From Actinomycetota bacterium (GTDB lineage Bacteria; Actinomycetota; UBA4738; HRBIN12), in assembly GCA_036281075.1 (NCBI GenBank), contig DASUPO010000006.1:9350-73349 (forward strand): a stretch of 64,000 bases of DNA, given 5' to 3'. Each line of letters begins with the position of its first letter. Position 1 is the first letter of the stretch. A program made the position numbers and the translations under genes. This document shows positions 11,476 to 23,345 of the stretch, one piece after another. The notes under the pieces are model-generated. The model ran no database searches, was not told the origin of the DNA, and was given only the letters and a program-made list of their open reading frames with translations.

Positions 11476-12168
11476 TCAGTGCCCGTGCATCCGATGGGTG
11501 AGGCGAGCGGTCCACTCGTATTTCGTGGCCTCGGCCAGGGACCGCATCACGTCCCGGTACCCCTCGCCGTCGATCAGGGCCTTCGCCGTCGCCTGTTCGG
11601 AGAGCTGGAGGTCGAGGATCCAGTCATAGTCCGTCCGGAGCGTGCCGACGTTCGTGCCGATCGTGAGCTTCTCGACACCCGGCTCGTCCGCGAGACGCTT
11701 CACCTCCGCCAACGCTCGTTCCTTGCCGGCGTCGTCGACGTCGGACCGCCACAGGAACATCGCCGAGTGGCGCACCTTGCCCGCCTCCATCAGTGGCGCG
11801 CCGTCGTACCACCAGTCGATCCGCGCCGTCATCTCGCCCTGGCAGACCGAGGCGTTGTAGACGGCGATCTCGTGGTGGACGTCGTCCTCGTTGTAGGCCT
11901 TCAGGCCTGCTTCGTCCTCGAAGTCCAGGTGCAGGGCGACGTCGTAGTCCGACGGCGGGCCCTCCGTGGCGCCGTGCCACCGGGGCGTGCGCTCCCACGG
12001 TTTCGTGTCCCGCAGGTGCAGCGAGCCGCCGAAGAGATCGGACCCGAAGTCGATCGCGACCGGCCCCGCGGCCGTGAAGCGCATGTAGGCGGACCCCTTC
12101 TGCATCCACTTCATCTCCTCGGGGCCGCTCCCCTCACGCAGCAGGAAGAAAGCGGTGTGTCTCAGCAC
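11476..12168 (-). CDS. Tandem (double) Dabb-domain protein
   Basis: There are two Dabb-like halves: (M)LRHTAFFLLREG...LHLDFEDEAGLKAY and VRHSAMFLWRSD...KLTIGTN...DWILDL. GTG start 9 nt after the ATPase stop, behind GGAGGA. Confidence 0.75.
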   Translation of the reverse strand: MLRHTAFFLLREGSGPEEMKWMQKGSAYMRFTAAGPVAIDFGSDLFGGSLHLRDTKPWERTPRWHGATEGPPSDYDVALHLDFEDEAGLKAYNEDDVHHEIAVYNASVCQGEMTARIDWWYDGAPLMEAGKVRHSAMFLWRSDVDDAGKERALAEVKRLADEPGVEKLTIGTNVGTLRTDYDWILDLQLSEQATAKALIDGEGYRDVMRSLAEATKYEWTARLTHRMHGH

Positions 12169-12177
12169 GGGTCCTCC

Positions 12178-12939
12178 TCACGCGTCGACCATCGGTCGTT
12201 CCATCTCCTCGAACAGCTCGAGGATCTCGGTCTGCTGGATCGCGACCTCCCTGTCCGTCTGGAGTCGTGGGAACGGCAGGTCGATCGCGAGATCGCGGAA
12301 GATCTTGCCCTGGCTGCTCATCATCAGGATCCGGCTGGACAGGAGCACGGCCTCGAGGACGTCGTGGGTCACGAACAGCACCGTGGAGCCGGTATCGAGC
12401 CACAACCGCTGGAGCTCCACGCGGAGGTCGCGGGCGGTGATCGCGTCGAGGTGGCTGAAGGGCTCGTCCATCAGCAGCAGGTCCGGCTCGATCGACAGGG
12501 CCCTCGCGATCCCGACGCGCTGCTGCATCCCGCCGGAGAGCTGCCCCGGGTACATCCCCGCGGTGGACCCGAGGTTCACGAGATCGAGGTAGCGGCGCCC
12601 TCGCTCGGTCCGCTCCTCCGTCGAACCCTCGTCGAGCACGTAGACCATGTTGTCCAGGACCGTCTTCCACGGGAGGAGCCGGGGGTCCTGGAACACGTAG
12701 CCGATCCTGGCCTCGCCCTCGGTGCGGCCGTGCACCTCCAGGGTCCCGGCGCTCGGCATCTCGATCCCGGACACCATGTTCAGGAACGTGCTCTTGCCGC
12801 AGCCCGACGGGCCGACGAGCGTCACGAACGTGTGACCCTCGGCCTCGAAGCTCACGTCTCGCAACGCGAACACGGGATCCTGGCCCGCCCGCGTGGGCGG
12901 GAACACCTTCTTGACCTCGCGCGCTACCAGTCGAGCCAC
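12178..12939 (-). CDS. ABC transporter ATP-binding protein, NitT/TauT family (cassette B)
   Basis: GPSGCGKST, FQDPRLLPW, LSGGMQQR, LLLMDEPFSHLD. Confidence 0.9.
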   Translation of the reverse strand: MARLVAREVKKVFPPTRAGQDPVFALRDVSFEAEGHTFVTLVGPSGCGKSTFLNMVSGIEMPSAGTLEVHGRTEGEARIGYVFQDPRLLPWKTVLDNMVYVLDEGSTEERTERGRRYLDLVNLGSTAGMYPGQLSGGMQQRVGIARALSIEPDLLLMDEPFSHLDAITARDLRVELQRLWLDTGSTVLFVTHDVLEAVLLSSRILMMSSQGKIFRDLAIDLPFPRLQTDREVAIQQTEILELFEEMERPMVDA

Positions 12940-12970
12940 GTCGGCTCTTCCCCGGCGAGCGCGGCCGTGA

Positions 12971-13819
12971 TCACGACCACTGCTGCCCCCCGATCCGCCA
13001 GCTCCGGAAGCGACGCACGATCCGGTCCATCACGACGCGATCGAACGTGAGGATGATGATCATCATCACGAGACCCCAGGCCATCATGCCCTCGAAGCTG
13101 CGGGCGTCGTACCAGAAGTGGGCGCGGAAACCGACCCCCTTGTCGTTGCCGAACCACTCGACGAGCAGGATGGCGCCCCAGCCCGCCAGCACCGCGGACC
13201 GGAACCCGGCGGCGATGTATTCCATCATCGACGGGATCACGAGCCACCGGAACTGGCGCCGCGTGCCGACCCGATACGCGTCCGACATCGCGAGCAGCCG
13301 CCCCGGCGTCGCGGTCGCGCCCTGGAACGTGTTCACGACGAGCTGCGGGGTGGCCGACACCACGCAGACCGTGATGGGGCCGATGTTGCTGAAACCCCAC
13401 CACATCACGACGAGGAGGGCCCAGATGAAGGCCGGCAACGTGATCCCCACGAGGATCAGGTCGGTGAGGAAGTAGCGGACGCGCCACCATCGCGCCATCG
13501 CGATCCCGATCGCCACCCCCAGGACGAGCACGATCGAGAGCCCGATCACGGCGCGGAACAGGCTGATCGCCACGTTCGGCAGCACCTCGCCGCGCCGGAA
13601 CTCCTCGATCAGGAACTCGACGGTCCCGAGCGGCGTCGGGATGTCCTCGAAGGTGGACCCCGCCCACTGCCAGACGAGCAGGAACGCCACGCGGGCCGTG
13701 TAGCGCGCGGCCCGGTCCGAGGCGAGCCACCACCAGGGGGAGCGTTGCGGCGTGAGCAGGAAGCCGGGGATGTCGGCGGCAGCCGCGTCCTCGCGGACGG
13801 TGGTCCCGGTCCCGCTCAT
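12971..13819 (-). CDS. ABC transporter permease 2 (cassette B)
   Basis: Multi-TM BPD_transp_1-type protein. ATG 13819 overlaps the upstream stop (ATGA). Confidence 0.85.
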   Translation of the reverse strand: MSGTGTTVREDAAAADIPGFLLTPQRSPWWWLASDRAARYTARVAFLLVWQWAGSTFEDIPTPLGTVEFLIEEFRRGEVLPNVAISLFRAVIGLSIVLVLGVAIGIAMARWWRVRYFLTDLILVGITLPAFIWALLVVMWWGFSNIGPITVCVVSATPQLVVNTFQGATATPGRLLAMSDAYRVGTRRQFRWLVIPSMMEYIAAGFRSAVLAGWGAILLVEWFGNDKGVGFRAHFWYDARSFEGMMAWGLVMMIIILTFDRVVMDRIVRRFRSWRIGGQQWS

Positions 13820-14670
13820 GCGACCTGCTCTCTGGCGCCGGCCGGATCCCGCCAGCGGAAGACCCGTCGCTCCGCCGGCGCGATCAGCAGCCGCTCGACG
13901 AGGATCACGAAGATCACGAAGAAGAACATCCACGCGAGGAGGTCGAGGACCGAGAACGTCTGGAAGGCCTTCTCGAGCTGGTACCCGACGCCCAGGTAGC
14001 CGCCGAACGTCTCCGCGAGCGCCGCGAGTTTCCAGGAGTTGGCGAACGAGACCCGGCCGCTCGCGAACAGGAACGGGACGACCGACGGCACCACGATGCT
14101 CCGGAGGGTCCGCCGGCTGCTGCGTCGGAACGAGCGGCTCATCGCGAGCAGCCCCCGGTCGACGGACTCGACGCCGGCCGCCGTGTTGATCGCGATCCCG
14201 GTGAACGCCTCCAGCGCGACGACGAACGCCGGCCCCCACGGGCTGATGCCGAACACCACGATCGCGATCACCGCGTACACGAGCAGCGGCACGTTCGCGA
14301 ACAGATAGACGAAGTCGTGGAAGAAGGCCCGAGCGTAGCGGTACCGGCCCATCAGCATCCCGATCGGGATCCCGATCGCGAGCGCCATCACCCAGCCGGC
14401 CATCGTCTTCAGGAAGCTGCTCAGGAAGTTCGTGAACACGACGCCGGAGACGAGAAGCTCCCACATCCGCTCGGCTACCGCGAGGGGAGACGGCAAGACG
14501 TAGGGCTCGAGGACCGTTGAGAAGTACGCCCAGACCGCGATGAAGCTCGCGGCACCGAGCAGGGAGTAGAGGATCTTCGCTCGGGTGCGTTTGCCGCTCG
14601 AGGCGAGGGCATCGATCGCCTCCTGCTCGAGCTCCTCGAGGCTCTTCTCGGTCTCGGCGGTCGCGGTCAT
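13816..14670 (-). CDS. ABC transporter permease 1 (cassette B)
   Basis: 284-aa multi-TM ORF, paralogous to 7355..8245. Confidence 0.85.
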   Translation of the reverse strand: MTATAETEKSLEELEQEAIDALASSGKRTRAKILYSLLGAASFIAVWAYFSTVLEPYVLPSPLAVAERMWELLVSGVVFTNFLSSFLKTMAGWVMALAIGIPIGMLMGRYRYARAFFHDFVYLFANVPLLVYAVIAIVVFGISPWGPAFVVALEAFTGIAINTAAGVESVDRGLLAMSRSFRRSSRRTLRSIVVPSVVPFLFASGRVSFANSWKLAALAETFGGYLGVGYQLEKAFQTFSVLDLLAWMFFFVIFVILVERLLIAPAERRVFRWRDPAGAREQVA

Positions 14671-14682
14671 GAGGGGAGAGGG

Positions 14683-14715
14683 CGGTGCCGCGTCACCGAT
14701 GCGACGCCGGCACCG
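14683..14715 (-). promoter_or_regulatory. Intercistronic stem-loop between the binding-protein and permease genes (cassette B)
   Basis: cggtgccgcgtc-accgatg-cgacgccggcaccg forms a 12-bp stem with one bulge. Confidence 0.5.
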
Positions 14716-14724
14716 GATCGCTCG

Positions 14725-15792
14725 CTAGAAGCCCTCCGGACAGGGCTCGCCTTCCGGATCCTCCATCACTTCGTGCCGAGGGAACTCCGCGTCTTCAGGG
14801 ACGACGCCGGCCTCCTGGACGAGATCGAACACCGGCCGCTCGCCTTCGATCCACTCCTCGGTCAGGTACGGGCTCTCCACGAACCAGTCGAAGGTGTTCT
14901 CGAAGTAGTCCTTCATGAACTGCGCCTCGGACTCGTTCTCGACCGCGAAGTGCTGCGGGTACGTATCGATGATCTCTTCGCGGTTCTGCTCCCACTGGAC
15001 CATCGCGCAGTCCCACACCTCTTGGAAGAAGGCCGCCGCCTCCGGGTTCGCGTCGAACCACTCGGCGCGGGACACGAACGCGTTGCTCAGCACGCCCTCG
15101 TGACCCGGCACGATCTCCTCACCGTAGAGCTGCGATGCCGACTTCCCGTCGTACATCACGGTCAGGTCGCCCGAAGCCATATCCGGGATCACCTGGGTGG
15201 GGTCGAGGATCCCGGCGCACGCCTCGTCCTCCCGCAGCAGGTTGGGGATCACCTGGTAGTCGGCCGTCACGATCCCGATGTCGTCCGAGCCCTCCGCGAC
15301 CTCGCGGCCGTCGAGCTCGTTGATCAGCGATCCCCAGATGATCGTGTTGCCGGTCACCGACTCCGTCGCGATCTTGCAGCCCGCCGGGAAGTCGGATGCC
15401 GTCTGATACTCGGGGTGCGCCGTCACGAGCACATCCTTGTTCATGTTGAACTGGCCGAACGTGACGGTCTCGATGCCCTGCTCCTCGAGGAGCGGCGTCT
15501 CGTATGTCCCGGTCGACACGACATCGGCGTGGCCGCCGGCGAACGTCGCCCACTCGTCCCACGTGGCGAGCTGGATGATCCTGAAGCCGGACTCCTGCTC
15601 CATCGCCTCGAGGATCCCCTGATCCTTCATCCAGTCCCAGGCGGGGTCGGGGGCGAACGTGAACCGGATGATGTTGCTCTTCTCGCCCTCGCCGCCACCT
15701 CCCCCTCCGCCGCCGTCATCCCCGCACGAAGCGAGCACGAGCGTGCCGACTGCGAGGAACGCGGCACCGCGGAGCCACCTGCGACGAGCCAT
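14725..15792 (-). CDS. ABC substrate-binding lipoprotein, NMT1/TauA-like (cassette B)
   Basis: MARRRWLRGAAFLAVGTLVLASCGDD lipobox. Shared blocks IIRFTFAPDP and FAGGHADVVS. ATG 15792 follows GGGGAGGGGG. Confidence 0.85.
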   Translation of the reverse strand: MARRRWLRGAAFLAVGTLVLASCGDDGGGGGGGGEGEKSNIIRFTFAPDPAWDWMKDQGILEAMEQESGFRIIQLATWDEWATFAGGHADVVSTGTYETPLLEEQGIETVTFGQFNMNKDVLVTAHPEYQTASDFPAGCKIATESVTGNTIIWGSLINELDGREVAEGSDDIGIVTADYQVIPNLLREDEACAGILDPTQVIPDMASGDLTVMYDGKSASQLYGEEIVPGHEGVLSNAFVSRAEWFDANPEAAAFFQEVWDCAMVQWEQNREEIIDTYPQHFAVENESEAQFMKDYFENTFDWFVESPYLTEEWIEGERPVFDLVQEAGVVPEDAEFPRHEVMEDPEGEPCPEGF

Positions 15793-15910: not shown

Positions 15911-16903
15911 CTAGCGGAGATCGGAGACGTCGACCGTGGAACCGGCCTCGACGCTGCGGCCGATCGCTTCGAGCACGGCCGCGACCTCGATCGCCTCCGA
16001 GATCCCCGTTTCCGGACGCCCGCCGTCGCGGACGTTCTTCGCGAACTCCGCCATCTCGTCGGTGATCGTGTCGAGCGTCTCGACCGCCTGCTCGCTCCGC
16101 ACCGGATCGGACCGTGGCTGCGTGAAGAGCCGGCTGCCGTCCTCCTCGTTCCACACGGCGGACTCCGTCCCGAAGACGGACAGCGAGACCACGGGTGAGG
16201 CGAAGTAGGTCGTGTTGATCGACCCGAGGGGGCCCGCCGCGTACTCGATCAGCACGGTCGTGGCCTCGTCGAGATCGGTGACGCCGTCGATCCTCGTGCT
16301 GAACGCCGTCAGGCGCTTCGCCGGGCCGACGAAGTAGTTGAACGTGTCGACCGTGTGCACGCCGAGCGCGGTCATGCCCCCGTAGGGACACTCGTCCGGA
16401 TCCTTCCGCCAGGGCGGCAGGTCCGGCTTGAAGCCGCCCGGGGCGGTGTGCATCCCGTCGAGGTGGAGGACGGTCCCGAGCTCGCCGCCATCGATCATCG
16501 ACTTGATCCGGCGGTTGGCGGGCTGGCGTCGACGGTTGTGCCCGACCTGGACGACGACGCCCGCACGGTCGGCGGCCTCCGCGACGCGCTTCGTGTCGGC
16601 GACGGTGAGCGCGAGCGGCTTCTCCACGAACACGTGCTTGCCCGCCTCCGCCGCGCGGACGGCGAGGTCGGCGTGGGTCGAATGCGGCGTCACGATCAGG
16701 ACGCCCTCGACATCAGGATCCCCGAACATCTCGTCGACGTCACGTACCGCGCGCGCGCCGTGCTGCTCCGCGAACGCACCACGCGTTTCCTCGGACCGGG
16801 CGAAGCAGGCGGTCACCTCCGCCAGGCCCGTCGTCCGGGCGCTCTCGGTCAGCACCCCACCGAACCAACCGAGTCCGATCACCCCGAGCCGAACCGTGTC
16901 CAT
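15911..16903 (-). CDS. Gfo/Idh/MocA family oxidoreductase
   Basis: MDTVRLGVIGLGWFGG Rossmann start, then ...VFVEKPLA...GHNRR. ATG 16903 follows GGAAGGGGA. The long track ORF upstream is an Arg-rich shadow. Confidence 0.85.
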   Translation of the reverse strand: MDTVRLGVIGLGWFGGVLTESARTTGLAEVTACFARSEETRGAFAEQHGARAVRDVDEMFGDPDVEGVLIVTPHSTHADLAVRAAEAGKHVFVEKPLALTVADTKRVAEAADRAGVVVQVGHNRRRQPANRRIKSMIDGGELGTVLHLDGMHTAPGGFKPDLPPWRKDPDECPYGGMTALGVHTVDTFNYFVGPAKRLTAFSTRIDGVTDLDEATTVLIEYAAGPLGSINTTYFASPVVSLSVFGTESAVWNEEDGSRLFTQPRSDPVRSEQAVETLDTITDEMAEFAKNVRDGGRPETGISEAIEVAAVLEAIGRSVEAGSTVDVSDLR

Positions 16904-16956
16904 CCGAAGATCCCCTTCCGTCACCGACGCGGCCTGGGCGTCGCGCCGCATCCCGT

Positions 16957-17637
16957 TCAGGCCGACCCGCGCTCCTCCGGCTTCGTCATCTCGATCGGCA
17001 TCGCCGCATGGCCTCGCATCACCTCGGCCGCCCGATCCGCATCCCTCGACCGGAACGCGTCGAGGAGCGCGAGGTGCTCCTCGTCGGCGCGACGGCGGAT
17101 CTCCGGGTGCCACCGCTGGGCCTGCGCGACGTACACGGTCGAGGACTCCTCGAACCCCTTCAGGATCGAGACGAGCCGACTCACGCCGGTGGACGCGTGG
17201 AACACGAGGTGGAACTGGGTGTTCAGCTCGACCCAATTCCCCAGGTCGCGTTCCTTCGCCATCCGCTGCCGGAGCCGCTCGGCTTCGTCCAGCTCCTCGT
17301 CCGTGATCCGATCCACGACGAGCTGCACAGCCAGCGGCTCGAGCTGCTGGCGGATCAGGCGGATCTCGTCCATCTCCTCCCAGTCGAGCTCGCGCACGAC
17401 GCCGCCCCGATGCCGGTCCAGCGTGATCAGACCCTCGGTCGCCAGGTCGCGGAGGGCTTCGCGCACGGGCGTCGTGCTCACGTTCAGCATCGCCGCGAGG
17501 TCCGCCTGGATCAGTCGCGACCCCCCTGAGAGGTCCCCTCGGAGGATCGCGCGCCGGAGCGAATCCTTCACGAACTCGTGGGCGGTGCGCCTGCCTCCGG
17601 TGGTGGCGACGTCCGCCCACCCGAGCTCGCCGGCCAT
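16957..17637 (-). CDS. GntR-family transcriptional regulator (FadR/FCD subfamily)
   Basis: Winged HTH (LIQADLAAMLNVSTTPVREALRDLATEGLI) plus a helical FCD-like C-terminal domain. ATG 17637 follows GGAGAGG. Confidence 0.85.
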   Translation of the reverse strand: MAGELGWADVATTGGRRTAHEFVKDSLRRAILRGDLSGGSRLIQADLAAMLNVSTTPVREALRDLATEGLITLDRHRGGVVRELDWEEMDEIRLIRQQLEPLAVQLVVDRITDEELDEAERLRQRMAKERDLGNWVELNTQFHLVFHASTGVSRLVSILKGFEESSTVYVAQAQRWHPEIRRRADEEHLALLDAFRSRDADRAAEVMRGHAAMPIEMTKPEERGSA

Positions 17638-17704
17638 CGACCTCTCCGTGGTCACGCGCCCCTCCTCCCAGACCTGATGGACCTGGGGTTTCACTTCAGA
17701 CAAG

Positions 17705-17717
17705 ATGTATGATACAT
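17705..17717. promoter_or_regulatory. Perfect 13-bp palindrome ATGTAT-G-ATACAT, a candidate GntR/FadR-type operator containing both divergent -10 boxes
   Basis: It lies between the GntR gene (start 17637, -) and the M24 gene (start 17796, +). It fits the t.GT.n.AC.a logic of FadR-subfamily operators. TATGAT (+, 17708-13) and TATCAT (-, 17709-14) are embedded. TGGACC at 17678-83 is a possible -35. Confidence 0.55.
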
Positions 17718-17795
17718 CTCCGTTCCGCGGATCCGTCGACACGCTCGCGGATCCCGGGCGAGGCGGGTGCAACCCCAGCGACCCGAGGAGGGATC

Positions 17796-19016
17796 ATGAG
17801 CGGTTACGCGCGCGGCCCCTACGGGGTGGACTGGGAGGACCGGATCGACTTCTCCCGCCTCCGGACCCAGCGGGTCGACGCCGTTCGGGCCGCGCTCCGG
17901 AGCTCGGAGATCGACGCCCTCCTCCTGTGGAAGGACGAGAACGTCCGCTATCTCACCTCGCTGCGGGCCCAGCTGATCGCGGGAAAGATGACGTCGCTGA
18001 ACGGCGTCCTCCTCACGAAGGACGCCGGACCGGTGCTCCTGTGCTCGGGCGGCGAGATCGACAAGGCGTCGATGGGCATGTCGTGGCTGACGGCCGCGCA
18101 CCCGATCCCGATCATGGAGCAGCGGGAGCTGGTGGACGGGTTCGTGAAAACGACCCTGGCGCCGCTCCTGGACGAGCTTGGCGTCGCCGGCGGCCGTCTC
18201 GGTGTCGACCAGGTGAACTACTCGCTCGTCGAGTCGATGGGATCCCACCTCCCCGACGTCCAGCCGGCCGACGGCGACCAGCTGATGCAGCAGGTTCGAC
18301 TGATCAAGAGCGAGGACGAGATCGCGATCATCGAGGAGGCGTGCGCGATCGGCGACTCGGTGACGCAGCGCGCGATCGACGCGACCCGGTCCGGACGCCG
18401 CGAGAACGAGGTGGCCGGGGATGCGATGCAGACCCTCTTCTACCTGGGCGGCGAGATGGCGCACGTGATCACGCCGTTCGTCGCTTCCGGCGAGCACATG
18501 TCGCCGCCGCATCGGATCTGCACCGACAAGATCATCCGCAACGGCGACCTCTGCTTCATCGACATCGGCGCGATGTGGAACGGTTACTTCGCCGACATCG
18601 GCCGGACGATGATGGTCGGCAGACCCACGGAGATGCAGAGGCGCGTCTACACGGCCGTGTACGAGGGCCTGATGGCGGGCGTCGACGAGATGCGGCCGGG
18701 CCGCACGAATCAGGACGTCGCGGACGCGATCATCGCGGAGGTGCGGGAGCAGGGCTTCGGCGACCACCTGTTCAGCCTGTTCATCGGCCACGGGATCGGG
18801 ATGGGCGCCAACGAGCCCCCGTACATCGGCGAGACGATGCCGGGATCGACCGTCTTCGACCTCAAGCCGGGGATGGTGTTCGCGGTGGAACCGCTGGTAT
18901 GGGTGCCGGACGTGCCGGGCGGCGGCGGGGTCCGGATCGAGGACATGGTCCTCGTCACCGACGGCGACCCCAGGATCCTGTCCCGCGTCGAGTACGACGA
19001 CCGCCTCCTCGCCTAG
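17796..19016 (+). CDS. M24-fold metallohydrolase (creatinase/Xaa-Pro dipeptidase-like), paralogue of 677..1915
   Basis: LLLWKDENVRYLTS...CFIDIGAMWNGYFADIGRT...HGIGMG...PGMVFAVEP...IEDMVLVT. ATG 17796 follows GAGGAGGG. Confidence 0.85.
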   Translation: MSGYARGPYGVDWEDRIDFSRLRTQRVDAVRAALRSSEIDALLLWKDENVRYLTSLRAQLIAGKMTSLNGVLLTKDAGPVLLCSGGEIDKASMGMSWLTAAHPIPIMEQRELVDGFVKTTLAPLLDELGVAGGRLGVDQVNYSLVESMGSHLPDVQPADGDQLMQQVRLIKSEDEIAIIEEACAIGDSVTQRAIDATRSGRRENEVAGDAMQTLFYLGGEMAHVITPFVASGEHMSPPHRICTDKIIRNGDLCFIDIGAMWNGYFADIGRTMMVGRPTEMQRRVYTAVYEGLMAGVDEMRPGRTNQDVADAIIAEVREQGFGDHLFSLFIGHGIGMGANEPPYIGETMPGSTVFDLKPGMVFAVEPLVWVPDVPGGGGVRIEDMVLVTDGDPRILSRVEYDDRLLA

Positions 19017-19023
19017 CCGATCG

Positions 19024-20016
19024 ATGGCCCGCGGGAGCGACCCCTCGACGGGCGGCGTGACGCCATCGGTCGGCGGGCGGCACTGGACCCGGTCGCGCGA
19101 TCAAGCGCCGATCCTCGGGTCGCCGGCCGTGTACGTGCTGGCGGCGGGCACGATCGCCGTGCTCGGCCTGAACTGGCCGATCATGTCGATCGGTGTGGAC
19201 CATGTACCGCCGCTGTGGCTCGCGACCTTCCGGATCGGCGGCGCGGCGATCGTGGTGGGCGCCGTCGCGGTCGCCCGCGGCATCGCGGCGCCGCCCCGTG
19301 CGGACCGCCCGATCCTGTGGAGCGTCGGCCTCGTCCGGCTCGCGCTCGTCACGGCGCTGGTCTTCAGCGCCCTGGCGATCGTGCCGCCCGGCCGCTCGTC
19401 GATCCTCGTGTACACGGCGAGCCTGTGGACCGTCCCGATCGCCGTCGTGTTCCTCCACGAGCGACTCACCACGCTGCGGACGATGGGGCTGCTCCTCGGC
19501 TCGGTCGGCGTCGTCCTGCTCCTTGAGCCCTGGTCGCTCGACTGGAGCGACCGCGATCTCCGCGCCGGGATCGGGATGCTCCTCGTCGCGGCGGTCGCGA
19601 ACGCCGCCACCACCGTGCATATCCGCGCGCACCGCTGGGCGGGCACGCCGCTCGGACTGATGCCGTGGCAGATGGCGGTGGCGGTGGCCCCGATCGCGGT
19701 CCTCGCCGTCCTCGTCGAGGGCACGCCCACTATCGCCTGGGATGCCGCGACGGTCGCCGTCGTCGTCTACCAGATCTTCCTGGGATCCGCGTTCGGCTTC
19801 TGGGGGCTGCTCACGGTCAGCCGGAGCCTCCCGGCGATCACCACGAACCTGCTGTTGATGGCGGTGCCGGTCGTGGGGCTCGCGTCGTCGATCGCGATCA
19901 CGGACGAGTCGCTCACGGTGGCCGTCGCGCTGAGCCTCGTGCTGATCTTCGCCGGCGTCGGACTTGGGGTCGCCTCCGATCGCCGGCAGGCGGAGGCGCT
20001 CGCGCCCGGCGCCTAG
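19024..20016 (+). CDS. EamA/DMT-superfamily transporter
   Basis: About 10 predicted TM helices in two repeated halves (an EamA-like duplication). Confidence 0.75.
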   Translation: MARGSDPSTGGVTPSVGGRHWTRSRDQAPILGSPAVYVLAAGTIAVLGLNWPIMSIGVDHVPPLWLATFRIGGAAIVVGAVAVARGIAAPPRADRPILWSVGLVRLALVTALVFSALAIVPPGRSSILVYTASLWTVPIAVVFLHERLTTLRTMGLLLGSVGVVLLLEPWSLDWSDRDLRAGIGMLLVAAVANAATTVHIRAHRWAGTPLGLMPWQMAVAVAPIAVLAVLVEGTPTIAWDAATVAVVVYQIFLGSAFGFWGLLTVSRSLPAITTNLLLMAVPVVGLASSIAITDESLTVAVALSLVLIFAGVGLGVASDRRQAEALAPGA

Positions 20017-20513
20017 CTAGGCCCCGCGCCCGACGCGCGGAGCGCCAGTAGCGCGTCCACGGCGTGGTCGATCACCGGGGTCTCGAGCGCGTCGTCGGTC
20101 ACCCAGCGGTAGCGGATCGTCCCCGAGCCGTCGATCACGAAGAGGGACCGCTTCGCGAGGCCGTCGTGCTCCTTCCAGACGTCGTAGCGGACGCCGTACG
20201 CGGCGCAGGTCTCGCGGCCCCAGTCGGAGAGCAGTGGGAACGGAACGCCCAGGTGCTTCGCGAACGCCATCTGGGAGAACGTCGCGGTGACCGCGATCGC
20301 CGCGATCCGACCTCCGACCTCCTCGATCCGAGGCGCCACCTGCCCCAACTGGGACAGCTCCGTGCTTCAGACCGAGCCGAAGTCGAAGACGTAGAACGCC
20401 AGGAGCAGCGGCCGCCCGCCCTCGAGAAGGTCGTCGAGCGACACCTTCTCCTCGAACGTCTTCCGCAGGGAGAACGGCGGCGCCGGGTCGCCGACACCGG
20501 GGCGATCAGTCAT
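20013..20513 (-). CDS. Peroxiredoxin (AhpC/TSA, BCP/PrxQ-like) with an in-frame TGA at the peroxidatic Cys position. Candidate selenocysteine enzyme, or alternatively a nonsense pseudogene.
   Basis: Track ORFs 20367..20552 and 20013..20348 are in the same frame. Joined, they read GDPAPPFSL...LLLAFYVFDFGSV-TGA-STELSQLGQ...FPLLSD...SLFVIDGSGTI. ATG 20513 overlaps the cyclase stop by 8 nt. Confidence 0.65.
20340..20369 (-). other. UGA plus candidate bacterial SECIS hairpin
   Basis: The mRNA reads UGA AGCACGGAG CUGUCCC AGUU GGGGCAG. This gives a 7-bp stem (one G.U) and a 4-nt loop containing GU 21-22 nt from the U of UGA. Confidence 0.45.
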
Positions 20514-21198
20514 CGAGCAGCGCCGCCGCTCTCGTGGGCCCCCCGTGCGCACCCTGCAGCTTCAGCGGCAGTCCGATGAACGTGAACCGCCGCCCCGCGA
20601 CCTGGTCCAGGTTCGTCAGGTTCTCGTAGTGGGTGACGTGGTGCGCCCGGCCCATCATGTGGATCGGGTAGATCCTGCTGGACGGATTGTCGGGCGTGCA
20701 CGTGTCGACGCCGAACGACTTGACGCCCCGCGCCACGATCCAATCGGCGACGTCGCCTCCGAGCCCGGGGAACTCCGTCAGGTACTCAGGGGTTCCGCCG
20801 AACTTCGTCGCGGTGCCCGTGTAGAACAGGACGATGTCGCCGGCTCGCACGTCCTGGCGCGCGTCGGCGAGGCCCTGCTCGACCCGCGAGACGGAGATGT
20901 CGGTGCGCGGCTCGGCGCCGGTGACGTCGACGCACACTGCGTCGCCGTAGAACAACTCGAGCGGCATCTGGTCGATCGTCTCCGCCGATGGGTCGGGGTC
21001 GAGATGGCTGAACGAGTCGACGTGCGTAGGGCCGTTGTCGTTCAGCAGGAATCCCTTCGTCTGGAAGGAGAAGCCGCTCTCGAAGCGCGGCGCCGTCTCC
21101 TCGTGCGTCGCATGGTCGAACAGCACGGTCTTTAGGTGGCCGGGGTAGACCATCATCCCCGTGTAGATGTCCTGCGAGAGGTCGACGATCCTGGGCAT
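20506..21198 (-). CDS. Cyclase-family protein (kynurenine formamidase-like metal hydrolase)
   Basis: MPRIVDLSQDIY...NDNGPTHVDSFSHL...VLFYTG...GVDT pattern. ATG 21198 follows AAAGGAG. Confidence 0.8.
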   Translation of the reverse strand: MPRIVDLSQDIYTGMMVYPGHLKTVLFDHATHEETAPRFESGFSFQTKGFLLNDNGPTHVDSFSHLDPDPSAETIDQMPLELFYGDAVCVDVTGAEPRTDISVSRVEQGLADARQDVRAGDIVLFYTGTATKFGGTPEYLTEFPGLGGDVADWIVARGVKSFGVDTCTPDNPSSRIYPIHMMGRAHHVTHYENLTNLDQVAGRRFTFIGLPLKLQGAHGGPTRAAALLDD

Positions 21199-21209
21199 CC
21201 GCGCTCCTT

Positions 21210-21989
21210 TCAATACATCACCATGCCGCCGCTCACGTTCAGATCCGCGCCCGTGACCGCGGCGAGGTCGTCGAACGCGAGTGAGACGACCGCGGCAGCG
21301 ACCTCGCGCGGCTCGATCAACCTGCCGAGCGGGATCTGCGACACCATCTCTGCGCGCGCCTCGTCCGCGGAGATCCCTCGGCCGAGCGCCTGCATCTCGA
21401 ACACGTGGTCCATCCGGTCGCCCGCCACGGGGCCCGGCGATACGAGGTTCACGCGCACGCCGGAGCCCGCCGTCTCCACCGCGAGCGAGCGGACGAGCCC
21501 GACGAGCGCGAGCTTGCTCGCCGCGTACGGGGTCCGTCCCCACAGCGGACGCTTCCCGGTCATCGAACCGATCACCACGATCGAGCCTCTGCCTCGCTCC
21601 ACCATCGACGGGAGGAACGCGCGGGCGCTCAGGAACACGCCGGTCACGTTCACGGCGAACGTCTGGTCCCACGACACGCGGTCGAGCTCCCACATCGGTC
21701 CCGTCGGGCCGGCGACGCCGCTGTTCGCGACGAGGGCGTCCACGGCTCCGAAGCGCTCGAGCGCGGCACTGGCCAGGTGCGAGAGCTCGTCCTCCGATGT
21801 CACGTCGGCGCGCACGCCGAGCGTTTCGGCCCCGGTGGCGGTGACCTCTTCGGCGACGGCCTCGAGCGCGGCCCGATCCCGCCCGGCGAGCACCACGTCG
21901 CCGCCGGCGCCGGCGAGGGCCAGCGCGATCTCGCGCCCCAGGCCTCGCCCGGCGCCCGTGACGACGGCCACCGGCCGACGCTCGTTCAC
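21210..21989 (-). CDS. Short-chain dehydrogenase/reductase (SDR)
   Basis: VVTGAGRGLGREIA (TGxxxGxG), NSG, YAASKLAL (YxxxK). GTG 21989 overlaps the upstream stop (GTGA). Confidence 0.85.
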   Translation of the reverse strand: MNERRPVAVVTGAGRGLGREIALALAGAGGDVVLAGRDRAALEAVAEEVTATGAETLGVRADVTSEDELSHLASAALERFGAVDALVANSGVAGPTGPMWELDRVSWDQTFAVNVTGVFLSARAFLPSMVERGRGSIVVIGSMTGKRPLWGRTPYAASKLALVGLVRSLAVETAGSGVRVNLVSPGPVAGDRMDHVFEMQALGRGISADEARAEMVSQIPLGRLIEPREVAAAVVSLAFDDLAAVTGADLNVSGGMVMY

Positions 21990-23311
21990 GAGCGCTCCTC
22001 GGCCTGCGCCGCCGGTGACACGACCGGCCGCGCGTCGGGGAACCGGTCCGGGTCCAGGCGCAGCCTGGCCGTCAGCGCGTGGCCGAACATCAGCTCGGCG
22101 TCGGCGATCGCCGCCGTCGACTCGGCGACGCGGGCCGATCCCTCCGCCGTGACGCGCTGATACGTCACGGCCTTCAGGAACTTCCCGACCCACAGCCCGC
22201 CGGTGTAGCGGGCCGCCCGCCGGGTGGGCAGAACGTGGTTCGTGCCGATCGCCTTGTCCGAGAACGCCACGGTCGCGTGGGTCCCGAGGAAGAGGGTGCC
22301 GTACGAGTTCATGCGCTTCAGGTACCAGTCGGGGTCCTCGGTCTGGATCTCGAGGTGCTCGGGCGCCATGTCGTCGGCAACACTCGCCGCCTCCTCATCG
22401 TCCTCGCAGACGACGATCGCGCCGTGATCCCGCCACGCGGCGCCTGCCACTTCCTTCGTCGGCCACTCGCCCTCGAGCCATGCGTCCACGGCGTCGGCGA
22501 CCTCGCGGGCCAGACGTTCCGAGGTGGTGACGAGCGTCGCCGGGGACGTCGGACCGTGTTCGGCTTGCCCGAGCAGATCCGCCGCGACGATCCTGGGGTC
22601 CGCCGAGTCGTCGGCGAGGACCATCACCTCCGTCGGCCCGGCGAGCAGGTCGATCCCGACCGTGCCGAAGAGCTGTCGCTTCGCCTCCGCGACGTAGGCG
22701 TTGCCCGCGCCGACGAGCATGTCCACCGGCTCGATGTCCTCGATCCCGAACGCCATCGCGGCGAACGCCTGGACGCCGCCGAGGCAGAGGATCTCGTCGG
22801 CGCCGGACGTCGCGATCGCGTGGAGCTGCGGCGGATGCATCCCTTCCGGCCCGCGCGGTGGAGCGCAGCCGACGACGCGGGGCACCTCGGCGACCTTCGG
22901 CACCGAGACCGTCATGATCGCGGAGGCGATCAGCGGATAGAGCCCGCCGGGCGAGTACGCGCCGGCGGATCCCACGGGGATGAACCGTTGTCCGAGCGTG
23001 ACCCCGGGGAGCGTCGGCCACTCCTCGTCCACCAGCGTCGAGCGCTGGAGCTCGGCGAACCCGCGGACCTGCTCCTGCGCGAACGCGATGTGCTCCTGGA
23101 GGTCGTCGGAGATGTTCGCGGTCGCGCGGCGGACCTCGTCCTCGTGCACCCGGAACGAGGACGGGCTCCAGCCGTCGAAGCGCTCGGAGTAGCGCCGAAC
23201 CGCGGGCTCCCCCTCTCGCTCGACCGCGGACAGGATCTCTGACACCGTCGCCCGGATCTCCGCCCAGGCTTCCTCGGTGAGCCCGGTCCGTTCCTTCAGG
23301 TGATAGGCCAC
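21986..23311 (-). CDS. Histidinol-dehydrogenase-family (HisD-like) NAD-dependent dehydrogenase in a non-histidine context (HpsN-like function possible)
   Basis: GGVQAFAAMAFG, AGPTEVMVLAD, QAEHGP and a YTGGLWVGKFLK-type C-terminus. GTG 23311 follows AGGAGG. The longer track ORF covers the AT-rich island. Confidence 0.8.
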   Translation of the reverse strand: MAYHLKERTGLTEEAWAEIRATVSEILSAVEREGEPAVRRYSERFDGWSPSSFRVHEDEVRRATANISDDLQEHIAFAQEQVRGFAELQRSTLVDEEWPTLPGVTLGQRFIPVGSAGAYSPGGLYPLIASAIMTVSVPKVAEVPRVVGCAPPRGPEGMHPPQLHAIATSGADEILCLGGVQAFAAMAFGIEDIEPVDMLVGAGNAYVAEAKRQLFGTVGIDLLAGPTEVMVLADDSADPRIVAADLLGQAEHGPTSPATLVTTSERLAREVADAVDAWLEGEWPTKEVAGAAWRDHGAIVVCEDDEEAASVADDMAPEHLEIQTEDPDWYLKRMNSYGTLFLGTHATVAFSDKAIGTNHVLPTRRAARYTGGLWVGKFLKAVTYQRVTAEGSARVAESTAAIADAELMFGHALTARLRLDPDRFPDARPVVSPAAQAEERS

Positions 23312-23345
23312 GACGCGTCTTGCCTCCTGGCGGTGCTGGATGACC

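Follow-up and report, generated by a model that had tools for sequence, protein, structure and literature searches.

A conserved in-frame UGA at the peroxidatic position of an actinobacterial peroxiredoxin-fold gene family as a probable selenocysteine codon

Does an in-frame UGA that falls on the catalytic codon of a peroxiredoxin (Prx)-like gene end that gene, or is it read as selenocysteine (Sec)? The question is raised by a minus-strand locus in the genome of an Actinomycetota bacterium (GTDB lineage Bacteria; Actinomycetota; UBA4738; HRBIN12; assembly GCA_036281075.1, contig DASUPO010000006.1, positions 9,350 to 73,349), a stretch of 64,000 nucleotides (64 kb) that is referred to here as the window. 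Two minus-strand open reading frames (ORFs), 20367..20552 and 20013..20348, lie in a common frame and are parted by a TGA (20369..20367) and six sense codons (AGC ACG GAG CTG TCC CAG), followed by the TTG that opens the second ORF. Read from the ATG at 20513, the joined translation contains a single internal stop, at codon 49, and runs ...LLLAFYVFDFGSV, stop, STELSQLGQ... A sequence-only reading of the window had described the two ORFs as one AhpC/TSA (BCP/PrxQ-like) protein of about 166 residues, with the stop at the codon of the peroxidatic Cys and a hairpin resembling a Sec insertion sequence (SECIS) behind it. The comparisons reported below argue that UGA49 very probably encodes Sec, and that a single gene, 20513..20013, specifies a Prx-fold selenoprotein of 166 residues. 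The features are collected in Table 1.

The arrangement of the two ORFs and the nature of the joined protein are as that reading had them. With Cys set at codon 49, the joined protein matches Pfam AhpC-TSA (PF00578) over residues 7 to 135 (E value of 1.3e-25; 90.2 bits against a cut-off of 26). The archaeal BCP 2cx3 of Aeropyrum pernix aligns to it without gaps, residues 7 to 152 to residues 7 to 152 (E value of 6.6e-22), and Sulfolobus Bcp1 and Bcp4 likewise align across both halves. Among the structural relatives, BCP/PrxQ-type proteins rank best and Mycobacterium tuberculosis AhpE next. The stop does sit at the peroxidatic position, opposite the Cys of FSPVCTKEL in 2cx3 and that of FTQVCTKEM in 2ywn.

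Relatives of the gene were taken from 65 loci found in a scan of one genome per GTDB species. Leaving out one locus cut before the site (L056) and one distant sequence (L065), the family set comprises 63 orthologues and the window, 64 sequences in all; its members come from Actinomycetes, Acidimicrobiia, Nitriliruptorales, and other taxa and are 53 to 87% identical. The frame is continuous across the internal stop in all 63 orthologues as well as in the window. The internal codon is TGA in 61 of the 64 sequences and TAG in 3, never TAA and never a sense codon (60 TGA and 3 TAG among the orthologues alone). L065, a Myxococcales metagenome-assembled genome (MAG) sequence that lies outside the family at 29% identity, carries TGC at the site and has the sequence of a canonical Cys peroxiredoxin (FYPLDFSPVCSTE). 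As a control, the stop codons that end the 64 genes were counted, and these comprise 40 TGA, 19 TAG, and 5 TAA. Outside the genus Geodermatophilus, non-TGA codons account for 0 of 61 internal stops and 23 of 61 terminal stops (38%), a difference with a Fisher P value of 1.8e-8 computed on sequences that are related and hence not independent. An internal stop that served merely to terminate would be expected to drift in the manner of the terminal ones.

Both halves of the gene are under purifying selection. The ratio of nonsynonymous to synonymous divergence (dN/dS; Nei-Gojobori method, window against each relative, MAFFT codon alignment) has a median of 0.32 over the 42 codons before the stop, with values of 0.1 to 0.2 in most of the closest relatives, and a median of 0.27 over codons +11 to +95 after it. 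Ratios of about 0.3 on either side imply that both halves are translated in one frame. Decayed flanking frames in relatives sharing the TGA would have spoken for a true pseudogene, and the opposite was found, both in the frames (63 of 63 continuous) and in the dN/dS ratios. The residues that flank the stop are among the most conserved of the family (A39-F-Y-V-F-D-F-G46, U49, E52, L53, Q55, and G57). Some irregularities were observed within the set of relatives. In L064, the frame is lost in the C-terminal half after ...EGTTAS (from 10133), through a frameshift or an assembly error. The MAG sequences L060 (labelled Chthoniobacterales) and L064 (labelled Acidobacteriota) cluster closely with those of Acidimicrobiia, and their placement probably reflects binning errors.

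A bacterial Sec codon is expected to be followed by a SECIS, and the hairpin downstream of UGA49 is a good candidate for one. The 7-bp AGUU hairpin drawn by the sequence-only reading begins nine nucleotides 3' of the UGA and occupies the positions given for it, and its loop G and U fall at nucleotides 21 and 22 from the U of UGA, close to the G23/U24 of Escherichia coli fdhF when the latter is read from its own sequence. Folding, which that reading had recommended as a check, gave a minimum free energy (MFE) of -29.1 kcal/mol for the 54-nucleotide region, with a z score of -3.66 relative to dinucleotide shuffles, and of -12.8 kcal/mol for a 30-nucleotide region. The published model of bacterial SECIS elements (PMC13188914) allows a loop of 3 to 9 nucleotides, an upper stem of 4 to 16 bp, a G in the first two loop positions, a UGA-to-loop distance of 16 to 37 nucleotides, and an MFE of -7.5 kcal/mol or lower. 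The hairpin of the window lies within these constraints, with a loop of 4 nucleotides, a stem of 7 bp, and a G as second loop nucleotide directly before a U; its UGA-to-loop spacing of 16 nucleotides is the lower limit of the model. Predictions for the window and for most of the loci L001 to L013 (the exceptions are L002 to L004 and L006), though not those for distant members, give an extended fold that takes the UGA into a lower stem.

The hairpin is conserved beyond what the protein alone would demand. In a 48-nucleotide alignment of the 64 sequences from the stop codon onward, which contains 34 distinct hairpin sequences, a stem of 5 to 8 contiguous base pairs closing at nucleotide 19, with a loop of 4 or 5 nucleotides, is found in every sequence. 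The mean stem length is 6.6 bp, compared to 2.05 bp in position-specific resamples of synonymous codons drawn according to the genes' own usage, and CAGUU (nucleotides 19 to 23) is invariant in the alignment. All 55 loop codons that specify Leu are TTG, a codon with a 7% share of the Leu codons in the rest of the genes; the Ser codon is TCC in 51 of 53 cases (25% background), and the Gly codon is GGA or GGG in 56 of 64 (38% background), while the usual GGC (49%) was seen twice. This choice of rare codons points to a constraint on the RNA beyond that on the protein. Covariation, another check that the sequence-only reading had called for, is present: the pair of arms CTG...CAG is replaced by CTC...GAG in L002 to L004 and L006 and independently in L050, and stem pair 4 occurs as U-A, U-G, A-U, G-C, and G-U. 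In the SQFG subgroup and some others, the 3' arm has moved by one nucleotide (loop AGUUC or AGUUG) with the stem retained. The ELxQxG segment that follows the putative Sec is invariant in the family and was not found in the Cys homologues, which suggests that the SECIS may in turn constrain the protein sequence there.

The three TAG codons come from one lineage. They belong to L018 (Geodermatophilus ruber DSM 45317; L018:10130-10132), L023 (a Geodermatophilus MAG; L023:10124-10126), and L025 (Geodermatophilus sp. YIM 151500; L025:10130-10132), the only Geodermatophilus loci in the set, and the hairpin is kept in all three. Santesmasses et al. 2017 (PMC5330540), following Mukai et al. 2016, reported that the tRNASec of Geodermatophilaceae has the anticodon CUA and that in this group UAG marks the Sec site of selenoprotein genes, among them an "AhpC" gene with a bacterial SECIS in Blastococcus saxobsidens DD2 (PMC5330540). 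The codon at the site thus tracks the reported tRNASec anticodon of the lineage.

Genes for Sec insertion adjoin one close orthologue. In L009, a Jiangellaceae MAG whose copy of the gene is 82% identical to that of the window and carries TGA, the set of selB, selA, tRNA-Sec, and selD lies 1 to 5 kb downstream (L009:11555-15861; Table 1). The positions that correspond to this cluster hold EamA and M24 genes in the window.

Table 1. Positions of the candidate selenoprotein gene, its associated elements, and the sel genes beside an orthologue (L009 rows in L009 coordinates, all others in window coordinates)
Feature	Position	Strand	Remarks
Peroxiredoxin-like candidate selenoprotein coding sequence, complete	20013..20513	minus	166 codons including proposed Sec49; ATG at 20513; terminal TAG at 20015..20013
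In-frame UGA, codon 49, proposed Sec codon at the peroxidatic Cys position	20367..20369	minus	BCP alignment and family conservation
Upper stem-loop of the SECIS-like element, CUGUCCC-AGUU-GGGGCAG	20340..20357	minus	7 bp; loop at nucleotides 20 to 23 from the U of UGA
Extended stem-loop with UGA in the lower stem	20322..20375	minus	Predicted fold; UCGGUCUGA pairs with UCGGAUCGA
Cyclase-family (arylformamidase-like) gene	20506..21198	minus	Pfam Cyclase; start codon inferred
L009 selB	~11555-13336	minus	Aligns to residues 2 to 598 of E. coli SelB
L009 selA	13333-14682	minus
L009 tRNA-Sec, anticodon UCA	14699-14790		ARAGORN and Rfam RF01852 (69.8 bits; gathering score 47)
L009 selD			Cys form; part of the downstream sel set

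Several observations weigh against reading UGA49 as Sec in a peroxiredoxin. No homologue of SelA, SelB, or SelD was detected in the 64-kb window by tblastn with E. coli queries, nor does the window hold a tRNA gene (tRNA-Sec included), an Rfam family at gathering score, or a match to a known SECIS model. The match between codon and anticodon in the three Geodermatophilus genomes rests on a report made at the level of the family. One relative, P0020/L068, encoded on a short Logan metagenomic contig, has CGA (Arg) at the site (L068:1259-1261) with the hairpin intact. The covariation is moderate when the stem is scored in a fixed register (84% of the cells pair, and cells with a double change number 16, compared to 5.3 in shuffles), and the RNAalifold consensus keeps only 4 pairs, much of the stem being invariant; both figures underrate the stem, since its 3' arm is displaced by one nucleotide in a subgroup. 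The MFE of the whole region discriminates weakly from synonymous resamples (mean z score of -1.2), since GC-rich sequence folds anyway. Finally, the Pro at -7 and the Thr/Ser at -3 of the PxxxT/SxxC signature are replaced by V42 and G46 in 63 of 63 family sequences, two residues that align with the P and the S/T of 2cx3 and 2ywn. The CGA of L068 differs from the common codon by a single T-to-C change; it stems either from a read error or from a recent mutation, whether inactivating or merely variant.

Four other explanations of the stop were weighed against Sec recoding. A random nonsense mutation may have struck the catalytic Cys codon of a gene now in decay; a single sequence could not speak against this, and the window brings no Sec machinery to do so. 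However, a stop at the same codon recurs in 63 orthologues down to 53% identity, with intact frames and with dN/dS ratios of about 0.3 on both sides; the conserved residues directly flank it (FYVFDFG..U..EL.Q.G), and the variety of the hairpin sequences shows that the relatives are not assembly duplicates. The probability of a pseudogene is therefore close to nil, and the earlier judgment that Sec recoding is likelier than a chance nonsense mutation is supported by the conservation of codon, frame, and hairpin and by the sel genes near the L009 orthologue. A sequencing or assembly error in place of a true TGC or TGT, each one base away from TGA, is just as hard to credit: the same TGA appears in independent assemblies from many projects and TAG appears in Geodermatophilus isolates, while TGC or TGT is found in no member of the family and Cys occurs only in the 29%-identical outgroup L065.

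The two remaining explanations accept that the stop is real and conserved. If translation really ended there, an N-terminal peptide of 48 residues would have to assemble with a TTG-initiated C-terminal protein of about 110 residues into a Prx fold lacking the catalytic residue. These are the very pieces that gene callers and RefSeq annotate, a GGAG lies 9 nucleotides upstream of the conserved TTG in the window, and a terminator, too, could switch from TGA to TAG. Such a split gene is nevertheless highly improbable. Terminal stops outside Geodermatophilus vary freely and the internal one does not; 9 members have TTC, a Phe codon and no start codon, in place of the TTG, which itself sits within the hairpin; conservation does not extend to the GGAG; the assembled product would be without the catalytic position; and a sel cluster stands beside the L009 orthologue. 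Hairpins 3' of stop codons can stimulate read-through in general, and a near-cognate or suppressor tRNA (Trp, Cys, or Arg) might decode the UGA in a selenium-free manner, with the hairpin acting as such a stimulator. The Arg codon of one relative would fit this explanation, as would the circumstance that the Sec machinery of the genome that holds the window is something we infer. We nonetheless regard selenium-free read-through as very unlikely, considering that the site is the position of a redox-active Cys, the classical place for Sec, that the hairpin fits the SelB-type SECIS model with the loop G and U at the right distance, and that the switch to UAG occurs only in a lineage reported to have tRNASec(CUA), while sel genes adjoin the L009 orthologue.

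Taken together, Sec at codon 49 has a high probability, and the established bacterial pathway suggests how it would be inserted. SelB carrying Sec-tRNASec would bind the apical part of the hairpin (loop AGUU, G21/U22) and bring Sec to the ribosome, so that release factor 2 would not end translation at UGA49. By homology, Sec49 would stand in for the peroxidatic Cys of BCP proteins, with the catalytic Arg kept. The likeliest chemistry would be a 1-Sec peroxidase or redox cycle, in which the selenolate attacks peroxide or another oxidant, becomes a selenenic acid, and regains its reduced state through an external thiol system. The loss of the activating Thr and Pro of PxxxTxxC could be due to the low pKa of Sec. 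The comparisons show a conserved signature of recoding, a constraint on the RNA, and sel genes beside a close orthologue; Sec insertion in this organism, the peroxidase activity, and the nature of the reductant are what we infer.

How far the protein may be called a peroxiredoxin depends on its active site. The catalytic Arg R122 (AKRSLFVID) is found in 63 of 63 family sequences and aligns with the Arg of AKRAVF in 2cx3. The motif of the family is VxxxGxxU, followed by xxE (USTE in the window) with an invariant E52, while position -2 is Ser in the window and variable across the family. Position 54, occupied by Ser, Thr, Ala, or Ile in the Sec family, is a Cys in ApBCP (CTKELC), which we take to be the resolving Cys. 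The family has no conserved resolving Cys, nor is C103, the one Cys that the window protein contains, conserved, so any catalytic cycle would have to follow the 1-Sec scheme and draw on an external reductant. The UxxC/UxxU motif of Prx-like thiol:disulfide oxidoreductase selenoproteins does not occur in the family. The protein scores 49.4 bits against the PrxU equivalog model (NCBIfam NF040737; cut-off of 270) and 25.8 bits against the NCBIfam selenoprotein model Prx-SUH (cut-off of 298), whose motif is CxxU where the present family has GxxU. VxxxGxxU is also unlike the motifs TxxU, UxxC/UxxU, UxxS, and CxxU catalogued in a 2026 review (PMC13188914). A search of 1.84 billion representatives for full-length homologues, with P0020 as the query, returned non-Sec proteins that are at most 40% identical and have Cys at the site; most of those inspected carry the canonical PxxxT/SxxC, with exceptions that include FYVFDFSGDC and FYSGDFGIIC. 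At this distance, and with mostly canonical motifs among the non-Sec homologues, the Sec clade forms a distinct branch. We conclude that the protein would work like a Sec-peroxiredoxin yet misses the strict Prx signature. Owing to the lost Pro and Thr/Ser, the functional label "peroxiredoxin" is less secure than the label "selenoprotein."

The conserved in-frame stop also explains why the family appears in databases as fragments, since gene callers split the genes there; hundreds of homologues are present solely as C-terminal pieces of about 103 to 110 amino acids or N-terminal pieces of 43 to 59. At an E value of 1e-10 or lower, a protein search matched more than 500 clusters. All but one of the best 120 clusters listed are 93 to 110 residues long and cover the C-terminal 53 to 67% of the query at 75 to 90% identity, the outlier being P0020. 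A 43-residue N-terminal query from the G. ruber orthologue returned only fragments of 43 to 59 residues. In G. ruber itself (NZ_FOSW01000012.1; L018), RefSeq lists a 49-amino-acid hypothetical protein (WP_177212860.1) and a 111-amino-acid redoxin domain-containing protein (WP_091327353.1), and the names given to fragments in IMG are "peroxiredoxin" or "glutaredoxin-dependent peroxiredoxin." RefSeq, IMG, and UniRef thus split a family of many hundreds of clusters into a "hypothetical protein" of about 49 amino acids and a "redoxin domain-containing protein" of about 105, and joining the two fragments recovers the catalytic residue.

The genomic setting of the gene recurs among its relatives. 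In the window, same-strand genes for a HisD-family dehydrogenase (TIGR00069, 426 bits), an SDR protein, and the cyclase lie upstream (20506-23314). The stop of the cyclase gene overlaps the start of the candidate selenoprotein gene by 8 nucleotides (ATGACTGA, 20513..20506), and the stop of the latter overlaps the end of a convergent EamA gene, which makes it the last gene of the minus-strand cluster; the sequence-only reading was right on both the overlap and the end position. Further downstream (within 15911-20016), the opposite strand encodes the EamA transporter and an M24 creatinase/prolidase-like protein, and beyond the M24 gene a GntR/FCD regulator and a Gfo/Idh/MocA oxidoreductase lie again on the minus strand. 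The full order of HisD-like, SDR, cyclase, and PrxU (the present gene) is found in L001 to L006, L009, L012, and L041. The cyclase gene is directly upstream in L001 to L013, L027, and L041 and about 250 nucleotides upstream in L046. Within 10 kb of the candidate selenoprotein gene, a cyclase homologue occurs in 27 and a HisD-like gene in about 23 of the 63 loci, in both Actinomycetes and Acidimicrobiia. These recurrent neighbours suggest a possible functional link. A scan of the window based on GC content at third codon positions picked out three further TGA codons, at 15404 (plus strand), 28944 (plus strand), and 12180 (minus strand), that join same-frame stretches of coding-like composition; they were rejected as selenoprotein candidates, for each resembles the normal end of one gene with another gene behind it, and they show no redox motif.

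A bolder proposal, which we consider rather unlikely on the present comparisons, is that the family is a distinct Sec-dependent Prx-fold enzyme and not a general peroxide scavenger, in which the change from Cys to Sec made the Pro and Thr dispensable and whose function is tied to the HisD-like/SDR/cyclase set. Such an enzyme could reduce a peroxide derived from the pathway or another oxidised intermediate, and it would represent a selenoenzyme class, widespread in aerobic soil Actinomycetota and Acidimicrobiia, that selenoprotein catalogues do not yet list and that RefSeq annotates in two pieces. In any case, the family would flag that selenium is used by soil Actinomycetota and Acidimicrobiia, abundant and mostly aerobic organisms whose selenoproteomes are thought to be small. 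A Sec enzyme that lacks the otherwise universal Pro and Thr of peroxiredoxins tests the idea that Sec obviates residues that lower the pKa. The site is also a natural recoding control, UGA in most lineages and UAG in Geodermatophilus, which supports the published UAG-Sec recoding and for which cultured strains exist. Specialists may wish to look at the noncanonical VxxxGxxU site, at how widely the family is spread in aerobic Actinomycetota, and at its systematic misannotation.

Among known systems, the SECIS of E. coli fdhF shares with the present element a stem-loop directly 3' of the UGA (UGA140 in fdhF) within the ORF, a UGA in the lower stem, and G-U in a 4-nucleotide apical loop. It differs in that its loop is GGUC at nucleotides 22 to 25 (G23/U24), compared to AGUU at nucleotides 20 to 23 here; the upper stem here has no evident bulged U, and the two elements have no sequence similarity. 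The BCP/PrxQ-type peroxiredoxins (2cx3, Sulfolobus Bcp1 and Bcp4, and M. tuberculosis AhpE) are the best structural homologues, alignable end to end without gaps and sharing the catalytic Arg, but they have Cys in place of Sec and retain the Pro at -7 and the Ser/Thr at -3 that the present family lacks. The bacterial Sec-peroxiredoxins (Zhang et al. 2006; Peng et al. 2016), among them PrxU of Eubacterium acidaminophilum, have in common with it the AhpC/TSA domain, Sec at the peroxidatic position, a UGA with a bacterial SECIS inside the ORF, and the existence of Cys homologues. The published family carries T/SxxU (PxxxTxxU), whereas the present clade is invariantly VxxxGxxU, lies near BCP/AhpE and not among the typical 2-Cys peroxiredoxins, and occurs in high-GC, mostly soil Actinomycetota and not in anaerobes. 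A further precedent is the Sec-UAG "AhpC" of Blastococcus saxobsidens DD2 (PMC5330540), likewise an AhpC/TSA protein of Geodermatophilaceae with a UAG Sec codon and a downstream SECIS. That report concerns one gene, while the present family comprises many hundreds of clusters in several actinobacterial classes and uses UGA outside Geodermatophilus. Given the Geodermatophilus orthologues with TAG and hairpin, the Blastococcus gene probably belongs to the present family. Sec-peroxiredoxins and a Sec-UAG gene of the AhpC type in Geodermatophilaceae are already known, and the family described here is of that broadly known kind, routinely misannotated.

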